Source: an uncultured Dehalococcoidales bacterium
GTDB lineage: Bacteria; Chloroflexota; Dehalococcoidia; Dehalococcoidales; BS750m-G39
DNA: 64,000 bases
Assembly: GCA_964408935.1 (NCBI GenBank)
Contig: CAYPBF010000001.1
Span: forward strand, 100,283-164,282
Direction: 5' to 3'
Under the pieces are notes generated by a model. That model saw only the letters and a program-made list of their open reading frames with translations. It was not told the DNA's origin and made no database searches. This document shows, in pieces, positions 49,255-57,042 of the stretch. The first letter of the stretch is position 1; each line of letters opens with the position of its first letter. The translations under genes were made by a program, and so were the position numbers.

Positions 49255-49833
49255 CTATTTTAGCCGCTTGGTCACCATGTCCCAGTCTATATTCTGGAAG
49301 AAGGCATCTATGTAGTCCGCCCGTTTCAACCCGTAATCGAGCATAAAGGCGTGTTCGAAGACATCCATCACCAGGATAGGGGCACAGCCCGCGGGGTGGC
49401 CGACCTCGTGCTCGTTAATCCACTGGTTGAAGAGCCAGCCGTTGGTGTTATCCTGATAGAGTATCGCCCAGCCGACTCCCCTCATCGCCCCCGTCGCCCT
49501 GAAGTCCTGTTCCCAGCCTTCGTAGCTGCCGTAGGCCGCCGCCAGCTTTTCCACTACCTTCCCCGTCTTATCCAGTGGTTTCTCACCCCCCAGGTTGCCG
49601 AAGTAATATTCGTGGAGGCGCATGCCGTTGAACTCAAAACCGAAGCGGCGTTTGAGCTCAGCGTATTCAGGGGTGCCCGCCTTGCCTTCCTTGAGCATGG
49701 CCGTCATTATGTCCCAGAGCTTGTTGGTGTTGGTGACATAGCCCTGGTAGAGGGTGAAGTGGTTTTTGAGCAGGGTCTCGCTGAAACCCTTCATCCCGAT
49801 AAGAGCGCTGTAGTCCTTGGCGTCATAACCCAT
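49255..49833 (-). CDS. Fe/Mn-family superoxide dismutase
   Basis: 192 aa from the internal ATG behind AAAGGGAAAGAGG. It has the VGWAIL and LVMDVFEHAFMLDY motifs (family pattern D-V-W-E-H-A-Y-Y). Confidence 0.85.
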   Translation of the reverse strand: MGYDAKDYSALIGMKGFSETLLKNHFTLYQGYVTNTNKLWDIMTAMLKEGKAGTPEYAELKRRFGFEFNGMRLHEYYFGNLGGEKPLDKTGKVVEKLAAAYGSYEGWEQDFRATGAMRGVGWAILYQDNTNGWLFNQWINEHEVGHPAGCAPILVMDVFEHAFMLDYGLKRADYIDAFFQNIDWDMVTKRLK

Positions 49834-49871
49834 TGTCTTTACCTCTTTCCCTTTTGAGTTGCAGTCAAGGT

Positions 49872-50111
49872 TCAGATAGTGCCTAAAAACTCCTTGGCCT
49901 GATAGTCCCACTCCCTTGAGGCCACCTCCACCGAGGCGCCCTGGCCCTGTGCCGAGGCGCTAACCTCGATGCTGCCACCACCCCCCTCAAAACAAACGTA
50001 ATCGGGTAACTCGTCCTTGACCTGAAGCCCCTGTCCACCGGGGCCGAAGAAGTTCATCGCCCGCCTGACCACCTCCTCCGGCTTTAACTTCGTCTTGGCC
50101 GATATTCTCAT
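49872..50111 (-). CDS. hypothetical small protein
   Basis: 79-aa ORF between the USP and SOD genes on the same strand, with no recognisable motif. Confidence 0.35.
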   Translation of the reverse strand: MRISAKTKLKPEEVVRRAMNFFGPGGQGLQVKDELPDYVCFEGGGGSIEVSASAQGQGASVEVASREWDYQAKEFLGTI

Positions 50112-50148
50112 GGGTTTTAACCCCTCTCACTAACTATTTTAGCACTTC

Positions 50149-50622
50149 TCAGGCGCCGCTGCTTAGATTCTGGGCTCTTATCATCAGGATAGGGACATCA
50201 GCTGCCCTGAAGACCCGGTCGGCCACGCTGCCGTGCGCCCAGCGGCTGATACCAGAGCGGCCGTGGCTGGCCATAACGATGAGCCCACATTTCGTTTTAT
50301 GGGCGTAGATGATGATTTCCTCGGCGGGTTTGCCCATGAGCACCTCGGTACGCACCTTGACGCCCTTGGCCTCTAGCATTTTGGCTATCTTATCCAGGTA
50401 TTTTCTAGCCTGTTTTTCTTCCTTGCCCACCGCTTCAGGGACCAGACGCTGTCCCAAGGGCTGAGAGGAATCATCTAACATAGCGAAACCTCTGACACGC
50501 TCGGTGACAGAAACCAGAAGAACTTCTTTGACCCCGCACTCCGTCGCCAGTGCCTCAACATGGGGTAGAACACACTCCGCCCGCTCGGAACCGTCCAGGG
50601 GAACCAGAATCTTATCGTACAT
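50149..50622 (-). CDS. universal stress protein (UspA family)
   Basis: 157 aa with ILVPLDGS...A and the IVMASHGRSGISRWAHGSVA ATP-binding motif. Confidence 0.85.
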   Translation of the reverse strand: MYDKILVPLDGSERAECVLPHVEALATECGVKEVLLVSVTERVRGFAMLDDSSQPLGQRLVPEAVGKEEKQARKYLDKIAKMLEAKGVKVRTEVLMGKPAEEIIIYAHKTKCGLIVMASHGRSGISRWAHGSVADRVFRAADVPILMIRAQNLSSGA

Positions 50623-50634
50623 GTTTAGCCCCCT

Positions 50635-50814
50635 TTATTTTTTAGTTCGGCAGCCGCGGCCTTTAGTTTCCGCCTTCTTTTCAACTACCGTGCCGCAACC
50701 ACAGGCACATGTTCCACCGGTGGCGCAGGGCTCACAGCAGTATACTGTCCCTTCTTTTTCGTAGCCTCCACCCGTAATGATACATCCGCATACCGGACAA
50801 ACTTGCTCGGCCAT
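50635..50814 (-). CDS. Cys-rich 59-aa metal-binding-like peptide (TRASH/metallothionein-like)
   Basis: MAEQVCPVCGCIITGGGYEKEGTVYCCEPCATGGTCACGCGTVVEKKAETKGRGCRTKK has 12 Cys and GGAGGTGA upstream. It falls just below the ORF-track cutoff. Confidence 0.5.
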   Translation of the reverse strand: MAEQVCPVCGCIITGGGYEKEGTVYCCEPCATGGTCACGCGTVVEKKAETKGRGCRTKK

Positions 50815-50854
50815 AGTTAAATCACCTCCTCTAACAGGTTAACACTATCTATAG

Positions 50855-50919
50855 AATAGCGGGGTGGCGATAAAGAAGTTATAAAACGAGGCTGGAAAAA
50901 GTTACAGAATTATGTCATT
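50855..50919 (-). promoter_or_regulatory. promoter/operator module copy A with Pho-box-like direct repeat, facing the Cys-rich/USP/SOD unit
   Basis: The minus strand reads AATGACATAATTCTGTAACTTTTTCC...TTTTATAACTTC.TTATCGC......GCTATT. By hand count it matches copy B at about 53 of 65 positions, and at 25 of 26 in the box. Confidence 0.55.
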
Positions 50920-50934
50920 CCCTATAGTTGAGGG

Positions 50935-52608
50935 TTAACCCTGACTCAGGGGTATGGTGAAGGAAAAGGTGGAACCCTTATCGGGTTCCGATTCCACCCA
51001 GATGTGGCCGCCGTGCGCTTCCACCAGCCGACGGCAGACCATAAGCCCCAACCCCACCCCCCGCACGCCGCTAGGGCGTTCTCCCAAACGTTGAAAGGGA
51101 GCAAAGAGCTTCTCCTGGTCAGCGGGGGAAATGCCGATACCCCGGTCGCTGACGCTGAAGGCCAGCTGTTCCCCCTGCCGCTTGGCCGATACCCGCACCT
51201 CGCCACCGGAGGGCGAATACTTGGCCGCGTTTTCCAACAGGTTATAGAGGATGCGCTCCAGTCTTAAGGGGTCGGCCTGGACCCTGGGGAGACGGCGGGG
51301 GAGGCTGATAACGAATTTATGGGTAGCATACTGGCGTTTGACCTTATCCAAAGCTTCCTGGATTACCTTTTTAGCGTCTATCGCCTCGCTATAGAGGACC
51401 AGGCGCTGCGCCTGGACGCGGGAAAGCTCCAGAAGGTTGGTCAGCAGGTTAGAGAGCGTTTCCGACTCGGTGGCGGCATCCTTGAGCAACTGGCGGGTTT
51501 CTTCCGGGGAGAGGCGCTCGGCCTCGGTAAGAGCGGTGTTGATGGCCCCCGTGATTACCGTCATCGGGCTGCGCAGCTCGTGGGAGACTAGCCCGATAAA
51601 ATCGTCTTTGAGCTGGTCCAGCTTCCTGTGCTCGGTAACATCCACCATTATCGAGCGGCTGGCTACCACCCTCCCCTCTTTATCGCGTATCGGGCGCACC
51701 GACAGGTTGACCCAGAGGCTGGTGCCATCAGCCCTTTTTACCTCCAGTTCCTGGTCGCGGACTTCCTCCCCGCTAATAAACCTCTTGAAGACCGCCTGGG
51801 CAGTGGCCTTGCCCGACGGTGTATCGGCATAAAGGTCAATCACGGGCTTGCCCACCAACTCCTCGCGGCTGTAACCGAGCAGCTCGGTAGCGCGCAGGTT
51901 AGCCCGCTTGATAATGCCATCCGCTCCCACCGAGAAGTAGGCATCGGGGGCCTGCTCGTAGAGGTCGCGGTAGCGCTTTTCGCTTTCCTGAAGGGCCTCT
52001 TCAGCTATGAAGGTATGCAGGGCCTCACCTATGTAGATTCCCACCCGTTCTAAGAACTGTACTTTTCCCAGAGGGATTTTGTTTTCGCTTTCGTCAGCCA
52101 GATGGATTAAACCGAGGATTTTGTCCCCGTGCTTCATCGGCACCAAAGCCACCGATTCGTAGCCGTACTGGTTACAGACGTTCCGGGTATGGCGTTTGGC
52201 TTCCTGGCTAGCCGACGCCAGCAGCTTGGTCGTGCCGTTAGTCAGAAAGGAGCCGCCCTTGGTATAGGAGGGGAGCCATGAACCGGTATTGCCCGTTATC
52301 ACATTAACACACATGCACTCGTCCGAGCTGATGCAGAGAGGACTTTCGAACTCATAGAACTCCTGGCTGAATCCGGTATAGGCGATATAAGGTATATTGC
52401 CGCCCTCGTCCAAAAGGCGGATGCCCACGCAGCAGCACTTGGTATAGTTCTTAATCAGCTCAATGAGCCGTTCCAGATATTCATTCATATGTCGGCTCTG
52501 GCTCAGCGTCTCCAGGATACTGATAAGTAAATCCCTCTCCGCCTGCACAGTGGCGGCATTCTTGGGGCCTTTCTTTTGGGATAGTTTTCGCTTCTTATTG
52601 GCGGCCAC
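50935..52608 (-). CDS. sensor histidine kinase (GAF-PAS-HisKA-HATPase_c), no TM segment evident
   Basis: 557 aa with a GAF-like N-half, a PAS domain (YRDLYEQAPDAYFSV...), the H-box SHELRSPMT, and N/G boxes (NLLENAAKYS, DRGIGI, GLGLMV). Confidence 0.85.
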   Translation of the reverse strand: MAANKKRKLSQKKGPKNAATVQAERDLLISILETLSQSRHMNEYLERLIELIKNYTKCCCVGIRLLDEGGNIPYIAYTGFSQEFYEFESPLCISSDECMCVNVITGNTGSWLPSYTKGGSFLTNGTTKLLASASQEAKRHTRNVCNQYGYESVALVPMKHGDKILGLIHLADESENKIPLGKVQFLERVGIYIGEALHTFIAEEALQESEKRYRDLYEQAPDAYFSVGADGIIKRANLRATELLGYSREELVGKPVIDLYADTPSGKATAQAVFKRFISGEEVRDQELEVKRADGTSLWVNLSVRPIRDKEGRVVASRSIMVDVTEHRKLDQLKDDFIGLVSHELRSPMTVITGAINTALTEAERLSPEETRQLLKDAATESETLSNLLTNLLELSRVQAQRLVLYSEAIDAKKVIQEALDKVKRQYATHKFVISLPRRLPRVQADPLRLERILYNLLENAAKYSPSGGEVRVSAKRQGEQLAFSVSDRGIGISPADQEKLFAPFQRLGERPSGVRGVGLGLMVCRRLVEAHGGHIWVESEPDKGSTFSFTIPLSQG

Positions 52609-52688
52609 CGAGGCACTCCTTCAGCTTTTCCTTAGCTTATGCTGTTTTATTCTAGTTTCGGTCGCCAGTCTAGTCAAGGCGCTAACCT

Positions 52689-52717
52689 TTGACATCGGCG
52701 CAAAGGCGGATTATTAT
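52689..52717 (+). promoter_or_regulatory. sigma70-like promoter of the response-regulator gene (TTGACA-17 nt-TATTAT)
   Basis: Consensus -35 at 52689-52694 and a -10 at 52712-52717, 30 nt before the GTG start. Confidence 0.45.
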
Positions 52718-52746
52718 TACAGGCAACAGGCACCTGGGAAGATATA

Positions 52747-53442
52747 GTGAAGCGTTTTCGAATACTGGTCGTCGACGACGAAGAAAGAATCGTGCACTTC
52801 CTCACCACCAAGCTCAAGGCTTCGGGCTACGAGGTGCTCACCGCCGGCGACGGCGTTTCCGGGCTGGAACAGACCCAGGCACAAGAGCCCGACCTGATTG
52901 TGCTCGACCTGCTCATGCCCCGGATGGACGGGCTGGAGATGCTCAAAGAGCTGCGTAGCTTTTCGTCGGTACCGGTTATTATCCTCACCGCCAAGGGGGC
53001 CGACGCTGACCGCATCAAGGGGCTGCGATTAGGCGCCGACGACTACCTGCCTAAGCCCTTCAATCCCGACGAGCTGGTGGCCCGCATCGAGGCCATACGC
53101 CGTCGCCTGCAGCCCACAGACAAGGACAAGGAGACCGAGCTCTTCCGCATGGGAGACGTCACCATTGATTTCAGCAAGCGCCAGGCAACGGTCGGCGGCG
53201 AGTCCAAATACCTTACCCGCACCGAGTGGCTGCTGCTCAGCCAGCTGGTCAACAACGCGGGGCGGCTCATGCTCTACGAAGAGCTGCTCACCCGCGTCTG
53301 GGGTCCCGAATACCGCGACGATATCCAGATACTGCGCACCTGGCTCAGCCGACTGCGCCGCAAGCTCCAGAGCGACCCCAAGAATCCCCTCATCCGCACC
53401 GTGCCCAAGGCGGGCTATATCATTGACCGACCTCAGGACTAG
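52747..53442 (+). CDS. OmpR/PhoB-family response regulator
   Basis: 231 aa with a GTG start. It has a receiver domain (VVDDE...DLIVLDLLMPRMDG...LTAKG) and a winged-helix trans_reg_C domain (LTRTEWLLLSQL...VWG...LRTWLSRLRRKL). Confidence 0.9.
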   Translation: MKRFRILVVDDEERIVHFLTTKLKASGYEVLTAGDGVSGLEQTQAQEPDLIVLDLLMPRMDGLEMLKELRSFSSVPVIILTAKGADADRIKGLRLGADDYLPKPFNPDELVARIEAIRRRLQPTDKDKETELFRMGDVTIDFSKRQATVGGESKYLTRTEWLLLSQLVNNAGRLMLYEELLTRVWGPEYRDDIQILRTWLSRLRRKLQSDPKNPLIRTVPKAGYIIDRPQD

Positions 53443-53455
53443 CCCCTATCCCGTT

Positions 53456-53520
53456 AATGTCATAATTCTGTAACTTTTTCCCCCTTCATTTTATGACTTC
53501 GTTATCGCTCAGTCGCTATT
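53456..53520 (+). promoter_or_regulatory. promoter/operator module copy B with Pho-box-like direct repeat, facing the PfpI/heliorhodopsin unit
   Basis: AATGTCATAATTCTGTAACTTTTTCC...TTTTATGACTTC.TTATCGC......GCTATT. TGTCA-N6-TGTAA gives an 11-bp periodicity. Confidence 0.55.
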
Positions 53521-53585
53521 ATTGGGGATACAAAGCGATTACGAGTATCTCTTACGGGACATCCGTAGGAAGGGGTGATGTCGAG

Positions 53586-53774
53586 GTGTTGAGACTGAAG
53601 AGCTGTCCAAAGTGCAAGACAGGCGACATTACTATAGACAGAGACCACCACGGCTGGTACGAGTACTGTATCCAGTGCGGTTACATGAGCGACCTTATCA
53701 GCGTGGCCGAGTCAGAGCAGGAGCCAGCTTCCAGCGGCAAAAAGCGGCCGACACTTCCTAATAAAGGGGACTAA
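53586..53774 (+). CDS. small 4-Cys zinc-ribbon protein
   Basis: 62 aa from a GTG behind GGAAGGGG, with CPKC...CIQCG. The track start at 53493 lies inside the duplicated promoter module and is unlikely to be real. Confidence 0.45.
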   Translation: MLRLKSCPKCKTGDITIDRDHHGWYEYCIQCGYMSDLISVAESEQEPASSGKKRPTLPNKGD

Positions 53775-53779
53775 AAGGC

Positions 53780-54298
53780 ATGCTCGTCGGGAAGAGGATT
53801 GCCATCCTGGCTGAGGAGGACTTCGAGGACTCGGAGCTTATCGAACCCTTGAGGTCAATGAAGAACGCTGGCGCCAGGGTGGTGATTGTAGGCACGGGTT
53901 CCAAGAAGAACTACCAAGGCAAGCAGGGCAACGCTAAAATCAGCGTTGATACCACCGCCGATAAGGTCAAAGCCAAGGACTTCGCTGCTATTATCGTGCC
54001 TGGCGGTTACGCCCCCGACAAGATGCGCCGCGACCCCTCCATGATTGAGCTGGTGAAGAAGGCCTACGAGCTAGGCAAGGTGGTGGCGGCTATCTGTCAC
54101 GGGCCGCAATTGCTCATCTCGGCTAACATAGTTAAAGGGCGCAAGCTTACCTCATGGCCCTCGATAGCCGTTGACCTGGAAAACGCCGGCGCCAAGTGGA
54201 TAGATGCACCGGTGGTGCAGGACGGGAATCTAATCACCTCGCGCAAGCCCGCCGACCTGCCCCGTTTCAACAAGGCCATCATTGAAGCCCTGAGATAA
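53780..54298 (+). CDS. DJ-1/PfpI-family protein (PfpI-type protease/deglycase)
   Basis: 172 aa with the AAICHGPQLL nucleophile-elbow motif and the IVPGG and NLITSR motifs. Confidence 0.85.
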   Translation: MLVGKRIAILAEEDFEDSELIEPLRSMKNAGARVVIVGTGSKKNYQGKQGNAKISVDTTADKVKAKDFAAIIVPGGYAPDKMRRDPSMIELVKKAYELGKVVAAICHGPQLLISANIVKGRKLTSWPSIAVDLENAGAKWIDAPVVQDGNLITSRKPADLPRFNKAIIEALR

Positions 54299-54318
54299 AA
54301 CAGCGGAGGAGGTGAACA

Positions 54319-55086
54319 ATGGCTACTGACCAATCTATCGAACGGCGACTTAACCGACTACGTATCTGGAATATCGTTGTCGGACTGATTCTGGCCGCAC
54401 AGGCTGTTTTGATAGCAGTACTCACTAACAACTTTTCGCTTCCGGTGACGGCAGGGTTTATAACCGGCCCGCCCGGCAGCGAACCCGAGATTCACCACCT
54501 GTTTAATATCGCCACCGGCTGGGGTGTTTTCGCTTTCCTGGCAATCTCAGCGGTTGCTTTGTTGATAATCGCCTCGCCTCTCGTTTTCCCCTGGTACAAG
54601 CGTAACCTGCTACAGAACCGTAACTACGGACGCTGGATAGAGTACTTCTTCAGCTCCTCTATTATGATCGTGTTAATCGCTCAAATCACCGGTATCAGTG
54701 ATATTGCCGCCTTGATGGCCATCTTCGGCATCAACGCCTGTATGATACTCTTCGGAGCGCTTCAGGAGAAGTATGAAAACCCAGGCAAGCCCAGCTGGCT
54801 GCCATTATGGTTCGGCAGCTTTGCCGGCGCCATCCCCTGGATTGCTATTGCGATTTACGTCTGGGCGCCAGGGCTTAATTTATCGCCACCCGGTTTCGTC
54901 TACGGCATCATTGCCTCGCTGTTCGTTTTCTTTAACTGTTTTGCTATCAACATGGTATTGCAGTACAAGAAGGTGGGACCCTGGCGGGATTACCTGTTTG
55001 GGGAGAAGGTGTATATAATTCTCAGTCTCACGGCCAAGGCGCTGCTAGCCTGGCAGGTGTTCTTCCCAGTGCTGATGCCAGCATAG
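54319..55086 (+). CDS. heliorhodopsin
   Basis: 255 aa with 7 TM helices. RWIEYFFSSSIMIVLIAQI, FGINACMILFGALQEKY, LWFGSFAGAIPW, PGFVYGIIASLFVFFN and SLTAKALLAWQVF parallel the blocks of prototype 48C12 as I recall them. The TM7 Lys is K240 (55036-55038) and the TM3 Glu is E108 (54640-54642). Confidence 0.85.
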   Translation: MATDQSIERRLNRLRIWNIVVGLILAAQAVLIAVLTNNFSLPVTAGFITGPPGSEPEIHHLFNIATGWGVFAFLAISAVALLIIASPLVFPWYKRNLLQNRNYGRWIEYFFSSSIMIVLIAQITGISDIAALMAIFGINACMILFGALQEKYENPGKPSWLPLWFGSFAGAIPWIAIAIYVWAPGLNLSPPGFVYGIIASLFVFFNCFAINMVLQYKKVGPWRDYLFGEKVYIILSLTAKALLAWQVFFPVLMPA

Positions 55087-55110
55087 TTTAAGAAAGGAGT
55101 TGCCAGACAA

Positions 55111-55569
55111 ATGAACAAGAAACTACGTTACCTGGGGTTGGGGATAATAGTCATCGGGTTGGTAGCTATAGCCATAGGCATCGTCTTTATCCAGCAGGGC
55201 TTTGCCAAGGAAGCCTTCTTAAAAGAGGCGATGACGCAAGAGCAGATAACACTTGGGAGTGTAGAGGGTATAGATGGCATCATAGATACTCAAGAGGAAG
55301 CCCAAATTGCCGGCGATACCGTCCGAGGACATCGGCATAGCATTGCCCCGACCTACGGGGAGCTATTGGGGGATGAGCAATTCGACCCCACCAACCCCAC
55401 CCAGTTGTCCTACGCCCAAGCCCTTAACCTAGAGAACTACCTCTATCTGGCGGTAGCATCTTTCGGCGTTTTCACCTTGGCCAAGGGGGCTGGGGCCTTT
55501 ATGGCACTGACGGGTATCGGCCTGGGCGCTACCGGTTTTGTGCTCTGGAAGAAAGCTAAGGGTAAATAA
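55111..55569 (+). CDS. hypothetical membrane protein (N-terminal TM, C-terminal 2 TM)
   Basis: 152-aa ORF starting 24 nt after the heliorhodopsin stop, behind AAGGAG. Confidence 0.4.
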   Translation: MNKKLRYLGLGIIVIGLVAIAIGIVFIQQGFAKEAFLKEAMTQEQITLGSVEGIDGIIDTQEEAQIAGDTVRGHRHSIAPTYGELLGDEQFDPTNPTQLSYAQALNLENYLYLAVASFGVFTLAKGAGAFMALTGIGLGATGFVLWKKAKGK

Positions 55570-55599
55570 GCTAAAAAATCAAACAAGGAGGTAAAGAAA

Positions 55600-56151
55600 A
55601 TGGCTAAAGTAGCGCGAGAGATGGTGGAGTTGACCGGAGTAAACGTTGACGAATTACTAAAGCTGCTCGTCGATAATGCCGCCGCCGAACTGACCACCTA
55701 TTATTACTACACGATTCTGAGAGCGAACCTTATCGGACTGGATGGCGAGACGATAAAGGAGATCGCCGAGACCGCCCGCATCGAAGACCGCAATCACTTC
55801 GAGGCCCTGGTGCCGCGCATCTACGAGCTGGGCGGCAAACTACCGGAGAGCATGATAGACTTCCACAACTGCTCTGCCTGCCCGCCGGCCAGCCTGCCCA
55901 AGAAAGCCCACGACGTCCAGGCGTTGCTCAAGGTGCTGGTGGAGGCGGAAAGGTGCGCCGTCAGGGGATACACCAACATCTGTAACATCACGGCGGGCAA
56001 AGACCACCGCACCTATGACCTGGCCCAATCCATTCTCAACGAGGAGATAGAGCACGAATCGTGGTTCTCCGAGTTCCTGGGTGAGGGTCCCTCCGGTCAC
56101 TTCCTGCGTCGCGGCGAGACCTCTCCCTTCGTCTCCAAGTTTTTGAAATAA
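55600..56151 (+). CDS. ferritin-like diiron protein, DPS-like (DPSL) type
   Basis: 183 aa behind AAGGAGG. It has a four-helix ferritin-like pattern (E..H diiron ligands: RIEDRNHFE and EEIEHESW) and a Cys pair (CSACPP) as described for DPSL proteins. Confidence 0.6.
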   Translation: MAKVAREMVELTGVNVDELLKLLVDNAAAELTTYYYYTILRANLIGLDGETIKEIAETARIEDRNHFEALVPRIYELGGKLPESMIDFHNCSACPPASLPKKAHDVQALLKVLVEAERCAVRGYTNICNITAGKDHRTYDLAQSILNEEIEHESWFSEFLGEGPSGHFLRRGETSPFVSKFLK

Positions 56152-56173
56152 GAGCGCGACGGTGTATTATAAT

Positions 56174-56226: not shown

Positions 56227-57042
56227 ATGGAAATTAGCTTCCTGCAAAATCTCCATCCGGTGGTCCAGGCGCTTCTGGCCACCCTCTTTACCTGGGCGAT
56301 GACGGCAGCGGGGGCGGCGACGGTATTCACCGCCCGGAACATAAGCCGCCGCATCCTGGACGCCATGCTCGGTTTCACTGCGGGGGTTATGATTGCCGCC
56401 AGTTACTGGTCGCTGCTGGCGCCAGCCATCGCCATGTCCCAGGATATGGACATACCGTCATGGGTGCCGGCGGTGGTCGGTTTCCTAGGCGGGGGCTTTT
56501 TCCTCTGGGGCGTTGATAAGGTGTTGCCCCACCTCCACCTGGGCTTCCCCACCTCGGAGGCGGAGGGGGTCAAGACAAGCTGGCGGCGGAGCACGCTGCT
56601 CGTACTGGCCATAACCTTGCACAACATACCGGAGGGGCTGGCGGTGGGGGTGGCCTTCGGGGCTTTGGCCGTGGGCATGCCCTCGGCCTCTTTCGGCGCC
56701 GCCGTCGCCCTGGCTATCGGCATCGGCATCCAGAACTTCCCCGAGGGGATGGCCGTCTCCGTCCCCTTGCGCCGTGAGGGCCTTTCGCGCCGAAAAAGCT
56801 TTATGTACGGGCAACTATCGGGGGTAGTCGAGCCTATTGCCGGGGTTATCGGGGCAGCAGCGGTGGTTATCGCCCAGCCCATCTTGCCCTACGCGCTGGC
56901 CTTCGCTGCGGGGGCGATGATATTCGTCGTCGTCGAGGAGGTAGTACCCGAAGCCCAGCGCGGCGGTAACGCCGACATCGCCACCATGGGCGCCATGGTC
57001 GGCTTCGCCCTGATGATGCTGCTCGACGTCGCCTTCGGTTAA
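56227..57042 (+). CDS. ZIP-family divalent metal transporter (ZupT/GufA-like)
   Basis: 271 aa and polytopic, with the [11 protein letters not shown] and QNFPEG signature motifs. Confidence 0.85.

Follow-up and report, generated by a model that had tools for sequence, protein, structure and literature searches.

The 64-kb window analysed here, the whole stretch of DNA shown above from an uncultured Dehalococcoidales bacterium, encodes a two-component system (TCS) formed by a histidine kinase (HK) and an OmpR/PhoB-family response regulator (RR), and one arm of an inverted repeat lies just past the stop codon of each of the two genes. The two arms are very probably copies of one conserved promoter module of 67 nt, each pointing outward to the neighboring operon. 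Together with its other copies in Dehalococcoidales, the module most likely marks a large stress regulon, heliorhodopsin included, that would be driven by the adjacent RR. We hold binding and activation by this regulator with less confidence than the existence of the promoter module.

Two inverted promoter-like modules flank the two-component system

The genes of the TCS and the two modules are arranged as follows.

50935..52608, minus strand: histidine kinase, 557 aa; Cys-rich N-terminus with a weak GAF match, followed by PAS, HisKA, and HATPase_c domains; no membrane segment predicted in this genome
52747..53442, plus strand: OmpR/PhoB-family response regulator, 231 aa; recognition helix DIQILRTWLSRLRRKL
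53456..53522, plus strand: module B, operator and promoter unit; begins 13 nt past the RR stop codon and faces the Zn-ribbon/DJ-1/heliorhodopsin operon
53456..53480, plus strand: box of module B, AATGTCATAATTCTGTAACTTTTTC, the putative RR operator; repeat TGTCAT-N5-TGTAAC at 53458-53474
53488..53508, plus strand: -35 zone of module B, ATTTTATGACTTCGTTATCGC; holds the -35-like hexamer ATGACT (53493-53498)
53517..53522, plus strand: -10 hexamer TATTAT of module B, from the promoter scan; transcription predicted to start near 53529
50853..50919, minus strand: module A; begins 15 nt past the HK stop codon and faces the operon for a Cys-rich peptide, a universal stress protein (USP), a hypothetical protein, and a superoxide dismutase (SOD)
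50895..50919, 50867..50887, and 50853..50858, minus strand: box, -35 zone, and -10 hexamer TATTCT of module A; transcription predicted to start near 50846

A repeat search of the window recovered the inverted pair (arms 50855-50919 and 53456-53520) as 65 nt that are 82% complementary and 2536 nt apart. This bears out the first-pass annotation, which had described a mirrored repeat past each stop codon, pointing outward, and had quoted its sequences correctly. The repeat is real, and the length of about 65 bp given there needs correction: the conserved unit spans 67 nt (50853-50919, minus strand; 53456-53522, plus strand), the final two bases finishing the -10 hexamer. Searched with up to 3 mismatches, the 26-nt box is found at exactly two sites of the window (0 and 1 mismatch) and not once across 100 shuffles, and both its 17-nt core and the 20-nt second block fall on the same two sites and nowhere else. 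A position matrix built from 55 homologous copies gives these sites 94.1 bits (module B) and 80.8 bits (module A), against a top score of -17 in 20 shuffled windows. The matrix scan detected no further box-like site of 8 bits or more in the window, the HK-RR intergenic region included. Chance or a simple repeat as the origin of the arms is ruled out by the shuffles.

The module is made of blocks at fixed spacing, namely, a 25-nt box with the direct repeat TGTCAT-N5-TGTAAC, a "-35 zone" (TTTTATGACTT), and a TAnnnT -10. The half-sites TGTCAT (positions 3 to 8) and TGTAAC (positions 14 to 19) are 11 bp apart and nearly invariant in 55 to 196 copies. Direct half-sites one helical turn (10 to 11 bp) apart define OmpR-family operators, and the TGTNAY-N5-TGTNAY repeat with its 11-bp period agrees with the site architecture of OmpR/PhoB winged-helix regulators that had been assigned to it at first pass. 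In copy B, the promoter scan reads ATGACT, an 18-nt spacer, and TATTAT (9/12 matches). The ATGACT -35 begins about 18 nt past the box repeat and the TAnnnT -10 another 18 nt downstream, which centers the repeat near -62 relative to the predicted transcription start. The putative operator is found at a fixed position upstream of the predicted core promoters of its targets.

The module also holds an internal inverted repeat, GTCATAA (53459-53465, positions 4 to 10) and TTATGAC (53492-53498, positions 37 to 43). The first arm is the core of half-site 1, the second lies in the -35 zone, their centers are 33 bp apart, and both are invariant in all copies. The regulator, or a second factor, may therefore contact the -35 zone as well, in the opposite orientation.

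Conservation is confined to the module

Copies of the module align without gaps and display three high-information blocks (55 to 135 copies): positions 1 to 25, AATGTCATAATTYTGTAACTTTTTC, with 1.72 bits/position; positions 33 to 53, ATTTTATGACTTCGTTATYGC, with 1.54 bits/position; and positions 62 to 67, TATTAT, with 1.31 bits/position. Just outside the module, information falls to 0.12 to 0.15 bits/position (0.12 upstream and 0.13 downstream). Among the matches listed, the same block profile is seen in the 135 TCS-adjacent and the 45 dispersed copies, TAnnnT stands exactly at positions 62 to 67 in 178 of 189 copies, and 182 of 189 are followed within 350 nt by a co-oriented open reading frame with a ribosome-binding site (median of 66 nt past the -10). 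The block profile, the placement of TAnnnT, and the reading of the promoter scan together indicate a core promoter whose -10 is good and whose -35 is poor.

Selection was assessed on 30 loci. Their mean identity to the window was 89% at the 52 core module positions, 53% at the four-fold degenerate sites of the adjacent RR gene (falling as low as 0.32 to 0.45 in more distant loci), 28% in the 40 nt upstream of the module, and 35% in the 43 nt downstream of it. Core identity was 0.83 to 1.00 in most loci and 0.77 in L018; a contig end truncates L006. Purifying selection on the module is strong and ends at the module edges.

Copies of the module in Dehalococcoidales

A scan of one genome per species gave 80 loci with an RR orthologue (58 to 94% identity), nearly all of them with the taxon labels Dehalococcoidales, Dehalococcoidia, or Chloroflexota. 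Homologues of the RR are also abundant in metagenomes, where the named ones belong to metagenome-assembled genomes (MAGs) of Dehalococcoidia/Dehalococcoidales, and when metagenome contigs were scanned for an exact pattern of 22 nt from the box, at least 120 of them matched. Genome loci and metagenome contigs together provided at least 196 copies of the module, all from Dehalococcoidales MAGs or metagenomes. At least 80 of them lie directly past an RR orthologue and at least 55 directly past an HK orthologue, always pointing outward. The others (at least 61) lie elsewhere, at least 45 of them with 1 kb or more of upstream sequence, and at least 35 of these 45 dispersed copies have no RR or HK orthologue on their contig.

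Both flanks of the same RR-HK pair bear the module in 35 loci among the matches listed. The 26-nt box is almost unchanged at both TCS-flank positions in about 30 species, and in 1.15 Mb of RR-centered loci it is almost confined to these two flanks. It is nearly invariant where the RR orthologues are 72 to 94% identical to the regulator of the window, and in RR clades farther away, a box of diverged sequence occupies the corresponding site (e.g., AATGTGATAACTTTTTAACC and GATGTCACAAACTCGCAACC). The synteny of the flanking genes is conserved across species, and the module stays with its target operon when the operons have swapped sides. A comparison of related genomes for the co-occurrence of both copies with the TCS had been proposed earlier, and the same two positions do recur across the loci fetched. 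The idea that duplicated promoters drive both flanks holds in so far as outward promoter modules are linked to the RR (135 of at least 196 copies); the RR would bind and activate them, as we argue below.

Dispersed copies and the genes behind them

The dispersed copies bear the complete module and stand ahead of about 25 other gene families. These encode Hsp20, rubrerythrin, tandem USPs, SOD, a SIMPL/DUF541 protein, and an SRPBCC protein; an NfeD protease, TusA, a DsrE-like protein, an HMA-domain (heavy-metal-associated) protein, an MBL-rhodanese, and a Rieske protein; a ferredoxin together with a class-V aminotransferase (NifS-like); OpuAC (glycine-betaine-binding), GT1/GT4 glycosyltransferases, an O-methyltransferase, and DUF1059; and a MerR/HTH_17 protein, a HisKA_3 kinase, and surface proteins. 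In L017, a third copy of the module lies 8 kb from the RR-HK system, ahead of MetF-like, rubrerythrin-like, and NifS-like genes.

The genes past the modules cover several types of stress. Oxidative stress is represented by SOD, rubrerythrin, DJ-1, ferritin, and SIMPL, protein stress by Hsp20 and NfeD, osmotic stress by OpuAC and a glycosyltransferase, and metal/sulfur functions by HMA, TusA, DsrE, and rhodanese, in addition to the USPs. One cis-element ahead of many unlinked genes of several stress types is the pattern by which a general stress regulon is recognized, and it is found here. The module-linked genes look like an oxidative/general stress regulon of Dehalococcoidales. The regulon had been called compact, which is contradicted by the at least 35 to 45 further complete modules that lie away from RR/HK orthologues and precede those 25 or so families.

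Paralogous OmpR-type RRs, 30 to 45% identical to the regulator of the window, are encoded directly past or beside modules in L085, L120, L172, L192, L014, L018, and L023, a possible sign of a regulatory cascade or of another protein that binds the box.

The adjacent regulator as the candidate binder of the box

The RR has the receiver and winged-helix domains of its family (Pfam Response_reg, 2e-32; Trans_reg_C, 8.4e-17). It is a generic OmpR-family member, with KdpE, RegX3, MtrA, and PhoP as closest solved relatives and KdpE as the best sequence match in the PDB (4kfc and 4kny; 160 bits over residues 5 to 215). Every NCBIfam equivalog score is below its cut-off, including that of the best model, RpaB (NF045944; 216.4 bits, cut-off of 330). 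The recognition helix, D[IV]Q[IL]LRTW[ILV]SRLR-KL, is almost invariant over 58 to 93% overall RR identity. The helix variants QIL and QLL are associated with box variants (10/20 vs 5/76), but the association is confounded by phylogeny and by the selection of the metagenome hits and is not used as evidence. The adjacent RR appears as the best candidate for the protein that binds the box, because the adjacency on both sides of the RR-HK pair is conserved, the variants of the box follow the RR clades, and the site type fits the family.

The main rival explanation accepts the regulon promoter and assigns the box to another transcription factor, a paralogous RR, or a dedicated sigma factor, the TCS merely lying within a stress-gene island. 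We consider it unlikely. It would account for dispersed copies that far exceed what adjacency to the TCS alone requires, for the paralogous OmpR-type RRs adjoining modules in L085, L120, L172, and L192, for an unusually conserved -35 zone that holds half-site 1 in inverted orientation, and for TCS genes that are themselves not downstream of any module. It sits poorly with the 35 loci in which one RR-HK pair has the module on either side, with the 135 of at least 196 copies that abut the stop codons of this pair, and with box variants that track the RR clades at the same position. The tandem repeat with an 11-bp period is, moreover, the site type of the OmpR family. As for a dedicated sigma factor, the fixed TAnnnT indicates a housekeeping-type -10 and not one of the extracytoplasmic function (ECF) type, and 42 nt separate the box from the -10 downstream, a distance too great for sigma contacts.

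Alternative readings of the arms

Two other explanations concern the nature of the arms themselves, and we regard both as very improbable. In the first, the box would hold an extended -10 (TGTCATAAT) and the rest of the module would be a leader acting as a cis-regulatory RNA (anti-Shine-Dalgarno or thermometer). The promoter scan does list TTAACC-18-CATAAT with an upstream TG for copy A; however, the region upstream of the box, where the rest of such a promoter would be expected, holds nothing conserved that could serve as one (0.12 bits/position). In copy B, the ribosome-binding site GGAAGGGG could pair with CCCCTTC (53481-53487), but few parts of the module are less conserved than this pyrimidine stretch. 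The fold of the copy-B leader has a z of -2.1, whereas that of the copy-A leader is unremarkable (z = -0.6), and RNAalifold yields a single invariant 7-bp helix with zero compensatory changes and a covariation term of -0.04 kcal/mol. Invariant blocks that are rigidly spaced and end in TAnnnT would be expected of protein-DNA contacts, not of a folded RNA. No Rfam family was detected in the region or in the whole window, except for one tRNA-Pro.

In the second, the arms would be the terminal inverted repeats of a mobile or invertible HK-RR cassette, or a dispersed repeat of the type of miniature inverted-repeat transposable elements (MITEs) or repetitive extragenic palindromes (REPs). Inverted arms do bracket a 2.5-kb segment and copies are dispersed; yet only HK and RR lie between the arms, no transposase or recombinase is found between or beside them, and the flanking synteny is conserved across species. 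The dispersed copies are single and unpaired, and of 189 modules among the matches listed, 182 are directed at the start of a gene close by. The copies cease to be alike at the edges of the module, and no target-site duplication was seen. In 5 of about 98 loci the segment is turned around with respect to its flanks, and copies within a genome are homogenized; homologous recombination between two functional promoters suffices to account for both. A MITE or REP would not be expected to show block-wise, promoter-like conservation ending at the -10, and the sole internal inverted repeat is the 7-bp one. The first-pass annotation had named a dispersed repeat as the finding that would overturn its reading: copies are indeed dispersed, but as gene-proximal, co-oriented promoters linked to the TCS and not as a REP/MITE.

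A Pho regulon, with the RR as PhoB, the kinase as PhoR, and the boxes as Pho boxes, is the least probable of these readings. PhoB of Escherichia coli shares with our system a winged-helix OmpR-family RR and two direct TGTNAY hexamers with an 11-bp period. Of 18 positions, the box shares 15 with the Pho-box consensus of E. coli, in agreement with the count given at first pass, and 13 with the mapped pstS site (TGTCATAAAACTGTCATA); its form, TGTNAY-N5-TGTNAY, is that of experimentally mapped PhoB sites. The WalR operator (TGTWAH-N5-TGTWAH) and that of PhoP of Bacillus subtilis are other tandem-repeat operators of the OmpR family. The best NCBIfam matches for the kinase core include PnpS and PhoR models, but the PhoR model stays below its cut-off (TIGR02966, 182.5 vs 334.2), as do the PhoB models for the RR (TIGR02154, 177.6 vs 296.2; NF007546, 127.9 vs 471), which is therefore not a PhoB equivalog. 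The Pho box substitutes for the -35, about 10 bp upstream of the -10. Here, in contrast, the repeat ends at position 19 and the -10 starts at position 62, a gap of 42 nt, so that the operator lies near -62 and the -35 is not replaced. The kinase is soluble, with GAF-like and PAS domains, unlike that of the Pho system, and the targets are stress genes, with zero phosphate-uptake or phosphatase genes in the about 35 downstream gene families examined.

The module as a terminator for the TCS genes was discarded, as there is no terminator-like site from stop codon to box and the dispersed copies are not at gene ends.

Relation to known regulators

KdpE and RpaB were considered as identities for the RR and rejected, their equivalog scores being under the cut-offs. 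KdpE provides the closest structures, but the equivalog score is 167 (cut-off of 325), and neither a kdp operon nor a KdpD-type kinase lies near the RR of the window; the label "KdpE" given by JGI to homologues of this RR is a nearest-hit annotation. KdpE activates from a site upstream of the -35.

The soluble GAF kinases DosS and DosT of Mycobacterium tuberculosis, with their RR, DosR, control a dispersed regulon that contains USPs, alpha-crystallin/Hsp20, and ferredoxin through one conserved operator. DosR differs in that it belongs to the NarL family and binds a palindrome and in that the GAF domains of its kinases carry haem; the likeness is one of design, and no homology is claimed.

RpaB of cyanobacteria governs a large dispersed light/redox-stress regulon in which the effect is set by the position of the operator (PMC6525291). 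It activates from about -51 (site about 50 to 60 nt upstream) and represses with its site at the transcription start (PMC6525291). On the opposite strand, our box reads GTTACAGA-ATT-ATGACATT, a pair of octamers resembling the (G/T)TTACAWW octamers of HLR1, the RpaB site, with 13 of 16 positions in agreement. The octamers are 3 nt apart in the box and 2 nt apart in HLR1 (periods of 11 bp and 10 bp, respectively), so the box is not a strict HLR1, just as the RR is not an RpaB equivalog. The hosts also differ, Dehalococcoidales being non-photosynthetic anaerobes, and so does the extent of conservation, which covers the whole 67-bp promoter in Dehalococcoidales and the repeat alone in RpaB/HLR1.

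Proposed mechanism

We think it probable, on the strength of these comparisons, that each arm is an activator-dependent sigma-70-type promoter of fixed geometry for the adjacent OmpR-family RR. The kinase and the regulator would be made from their own near-consensus divergent promoters. Upon a stress signal, the kinase would phosphorylate the regulator, whose dimer would bind the box (positions 1 to 25) and bring RNA polymerase to the weak core promoter; the operons on either flank and the dispersed module-bearing promoters would then be switched on. Oxidative or general stress is the presumed trigger. An operator near -62 combined with a weak -35 suggests activation rather than repression. 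As a mechanism, an OmpR-family activator with a tandem-repeat operator is ordinary.

The genes of the TCS are preceded by promoters of another kind:

52649..52717, no strand assigned: divergent sigma-70-type promoters in the HK-RR intergenic region, TTGACA-17-TATTAT for the RR (11/12) and TTGACT-17-TAGAAT for the HK (10/12)

Near-consensus and devoid of the box, these promoters make the two genes appear to be constitutively expressed and not autoregulated through the module. No terminator-like site was found between the TCS stop codons and the boxes, so that read-through could give the flanking operons a basal expression. At 50961-50989 (minus strand), within the last 15 or so codons of the kinase and about 40 nt upstream of module A, there is a hairpin that resembles a terminator and has a T-rich tail (GGAACCCGATAAGGGTTCC ACCTTTTCCT).

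The kinase had been described as a cytoplasmic GAF-PAS protein. The PAS domain and the lack of a predicted membrane segment stand, while the GAF call is weak (Pfam E = 7e-4, under the curated cut-off). Within residues 1 to 215 (51964-52608, minus strand), Cys58, Cys60, Cys100, and Cys145 are conserved in the 17 of 49 orthologues that have this N-terminus; in the remaining orthologues, the PAS-HisKA-HATPase core is likewise conserved but is preceded by an N-terminus that is membrane-anchored or has several PAS domains. As a guess only, the N-terminus might hold a Cys-liganded cofactor, e.g., an Fe-S cluster or a metal.

Several observations weigh against control of the module by this TCS. The box does not occur in the HK-RR intergenic region, and the positive autoregulation usual for TCSs is thus absent. 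The N-terminal sensor module of the kinase varies among orthologues, so that no single signal can be read from it. The pairing of the RR with the box is drawn from conserved adjacency and site type, which leaves room for other regulators, paralogous OmpR-type RRs among them. The -35 zone is conserved far past the -35 hexamer, TTATGAC included, and a simple activator model leaves this unexplained. The dispersed copies lie on short contigs, whose source genomes are not provably carriers of the RR-HK system. Finally, the hosts are all uncultured MAGs or metagenome contigs, with no cultured relative among the homologues.

Evolution of the paired modules

At the non-conserved positions of the module, the two copies of a genome share a mean identity of 0.65 (median of 0.73), compared with 0.49 to 0.52 between genomes. 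This within-genome likeness is absent beyond the module, which points to gene conversion over about 67 bp as the process that would keep the TCS-flanking copies alike. Among the matches listed, 5 of about 98 loci show the target operons on the side opposite to that in the window, with the order HK-module-ZnR/DJ-1 (ZnR, Zn-ribbon) in L016, L037, L118, and L188 and RR-module-USP/SOD in L166. An occasional inversion of the 2.5-kb HK-RR segment by recombination between the inverted modules would produce such swaps. Two inverted functional promoters thus seem to behave like a recombination substrate that is homogenized over 67 bp and occasionally flips the regulator cassette.

The two target operons of the window

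The operons faced by modules A and B, and the genes within them, are as follows.

49255..50814, minus strand: left target operon
50635..50814, minus strand: Cys-rich protein, 59 aa
50149..50622, minus strand: USP
49872..50111, minus strand: lineage-specific protein, 79 aa
49255 to about 49833, minus strand: Fe/Mn-SOD
53586..56151, plus strand: right target operon, intergenic gaps of 5 to 30 nt
53586..53774, plus strand: Zn-ribbon protein, 62 aa
53780..54298, plus strand: DJ-1/PfpI protein
54319..55086, plus strand: heliorhodopsin
55111..55569, plus strand: membrane protein, 152 aa
55600..56151, plus strand: ferritin-like protein, 183 aa

In the left operon, the first gene past the HK-side module encodes the 59-aa protein, which has 11 cysteines (CPVCGC...CCEPC...CACGC) and a sub-threshold resemblance to prokaryotic metallothionein (21 bits, cut-off of 33). 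Its homologues are found again past other copies of the module, e.g., in L136. The 79-aa protein belongs to a small family (334 proteins in a search of 5.8 billion) that usually adjoins SOD. No Pfam domain was found in this family, and its few named members are from uncultured Chloroflexi/Dehalococcoidia. The SOD gene probably starts at ATG 49833, with which its apparent 40-nt overlap with the 79-aa gene vanishes.

In the right operon, the Zn-ribbon gene most likely starts at GTG 53586 and not at ATG 53493, which lies inside module B. Its product (CPKC...CIQC) is free-standing and is encoded by the first gene past the RR-side module in 47 of 80 loci among the matches listed; in Thermoplasmatales, Zn-ribbon domains are fused to heliorhodopsins (Bulzu et al. 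2021, PMC8612252). Just past the ferritin-like gene, a separate promoter-like site, TTGAAA-16-TATTAT (56143-56170, plus strand), precedes the gene of a ZIP-family metal transporter (56227-57042, plus strand), and the operon of module B may end at 56151.

Heliorhodopsin as a possible output of a putative stress regulon

The first-pass annotation knew of no described regulon of this kind, but the link between heliorhodopsin, two-component, and redox genes had already been published. Heliorhodopsin neighborhoods are enriched in two-component and redox genes, Chloroflexi included (Bulzu et al. 2021, PMC8612252), and the domains encoded there comprise HisKA/PAS/GAF kinases, Response_reg/Trans_reg_C regulators, and oxidative-stress genes (PMC8612252). 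Bulzu et al. proposed that heliorhodopsin signals to kinases and thereby mitigates photo-oxidative stress (PMC8612252). Their argument is one of neighborhood and places heliorhodopsin upstream of the kinases, whereas the module of Dehalococcoidales would place it downstream of the regulator, as an output. Their work gives neither a cis-element nor a direction of control nor a wider regulon (PMC8612252), and the putative regulon described here reaches far beyond the heliorhodopsin locus. Another paper mentions heliorhodopsin for Patescibacteria only (PMC11919646). Our literature search found neither the motif string of the module in a relevant context nor a paper on a stress regulon of Dehalococcoides/Dehalococcoidia.

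A wider reading, which we offer tentatively and hold to be somewhat less probable than its opposite, is that the RR-HK pair acts as the master switch of an order-wide general stress response of Dehalococcoidales, with heliorhodopsin as an output alongside SOD, DJ-1, and ferritin and not as a light sensor feeding the kinase. Such a switch would be a functional counterpart of SigB, RpoS, or PhyR-EcfG, with a single rigid promoter module of 67 bp as its means of control.

In anoxic sediments, Dehalococcoidales are an abundant group with hardly any cultured members, and to our knowledge no stress-response regulation has been described for them. A sharply bounded, searchable module of 67 bp would make their stress regulon readable from MAGs and trackable in metatranscriptomes, and this would be the first readable stress regulon for this uncultured lineage. 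The heliorhodopsin operon, which lies past the module together with DJ-1 and ferritin and is mirrored by the USP/SOD operon, leads to the prediction that heliorhodopsin is co-induced with the oxidative-stress defenses by the RR. The value of the finding lies in the unusually rigid conservation of the 67-bp module and in a testable placement of heliorhodopsin as an output of the stress regulon.

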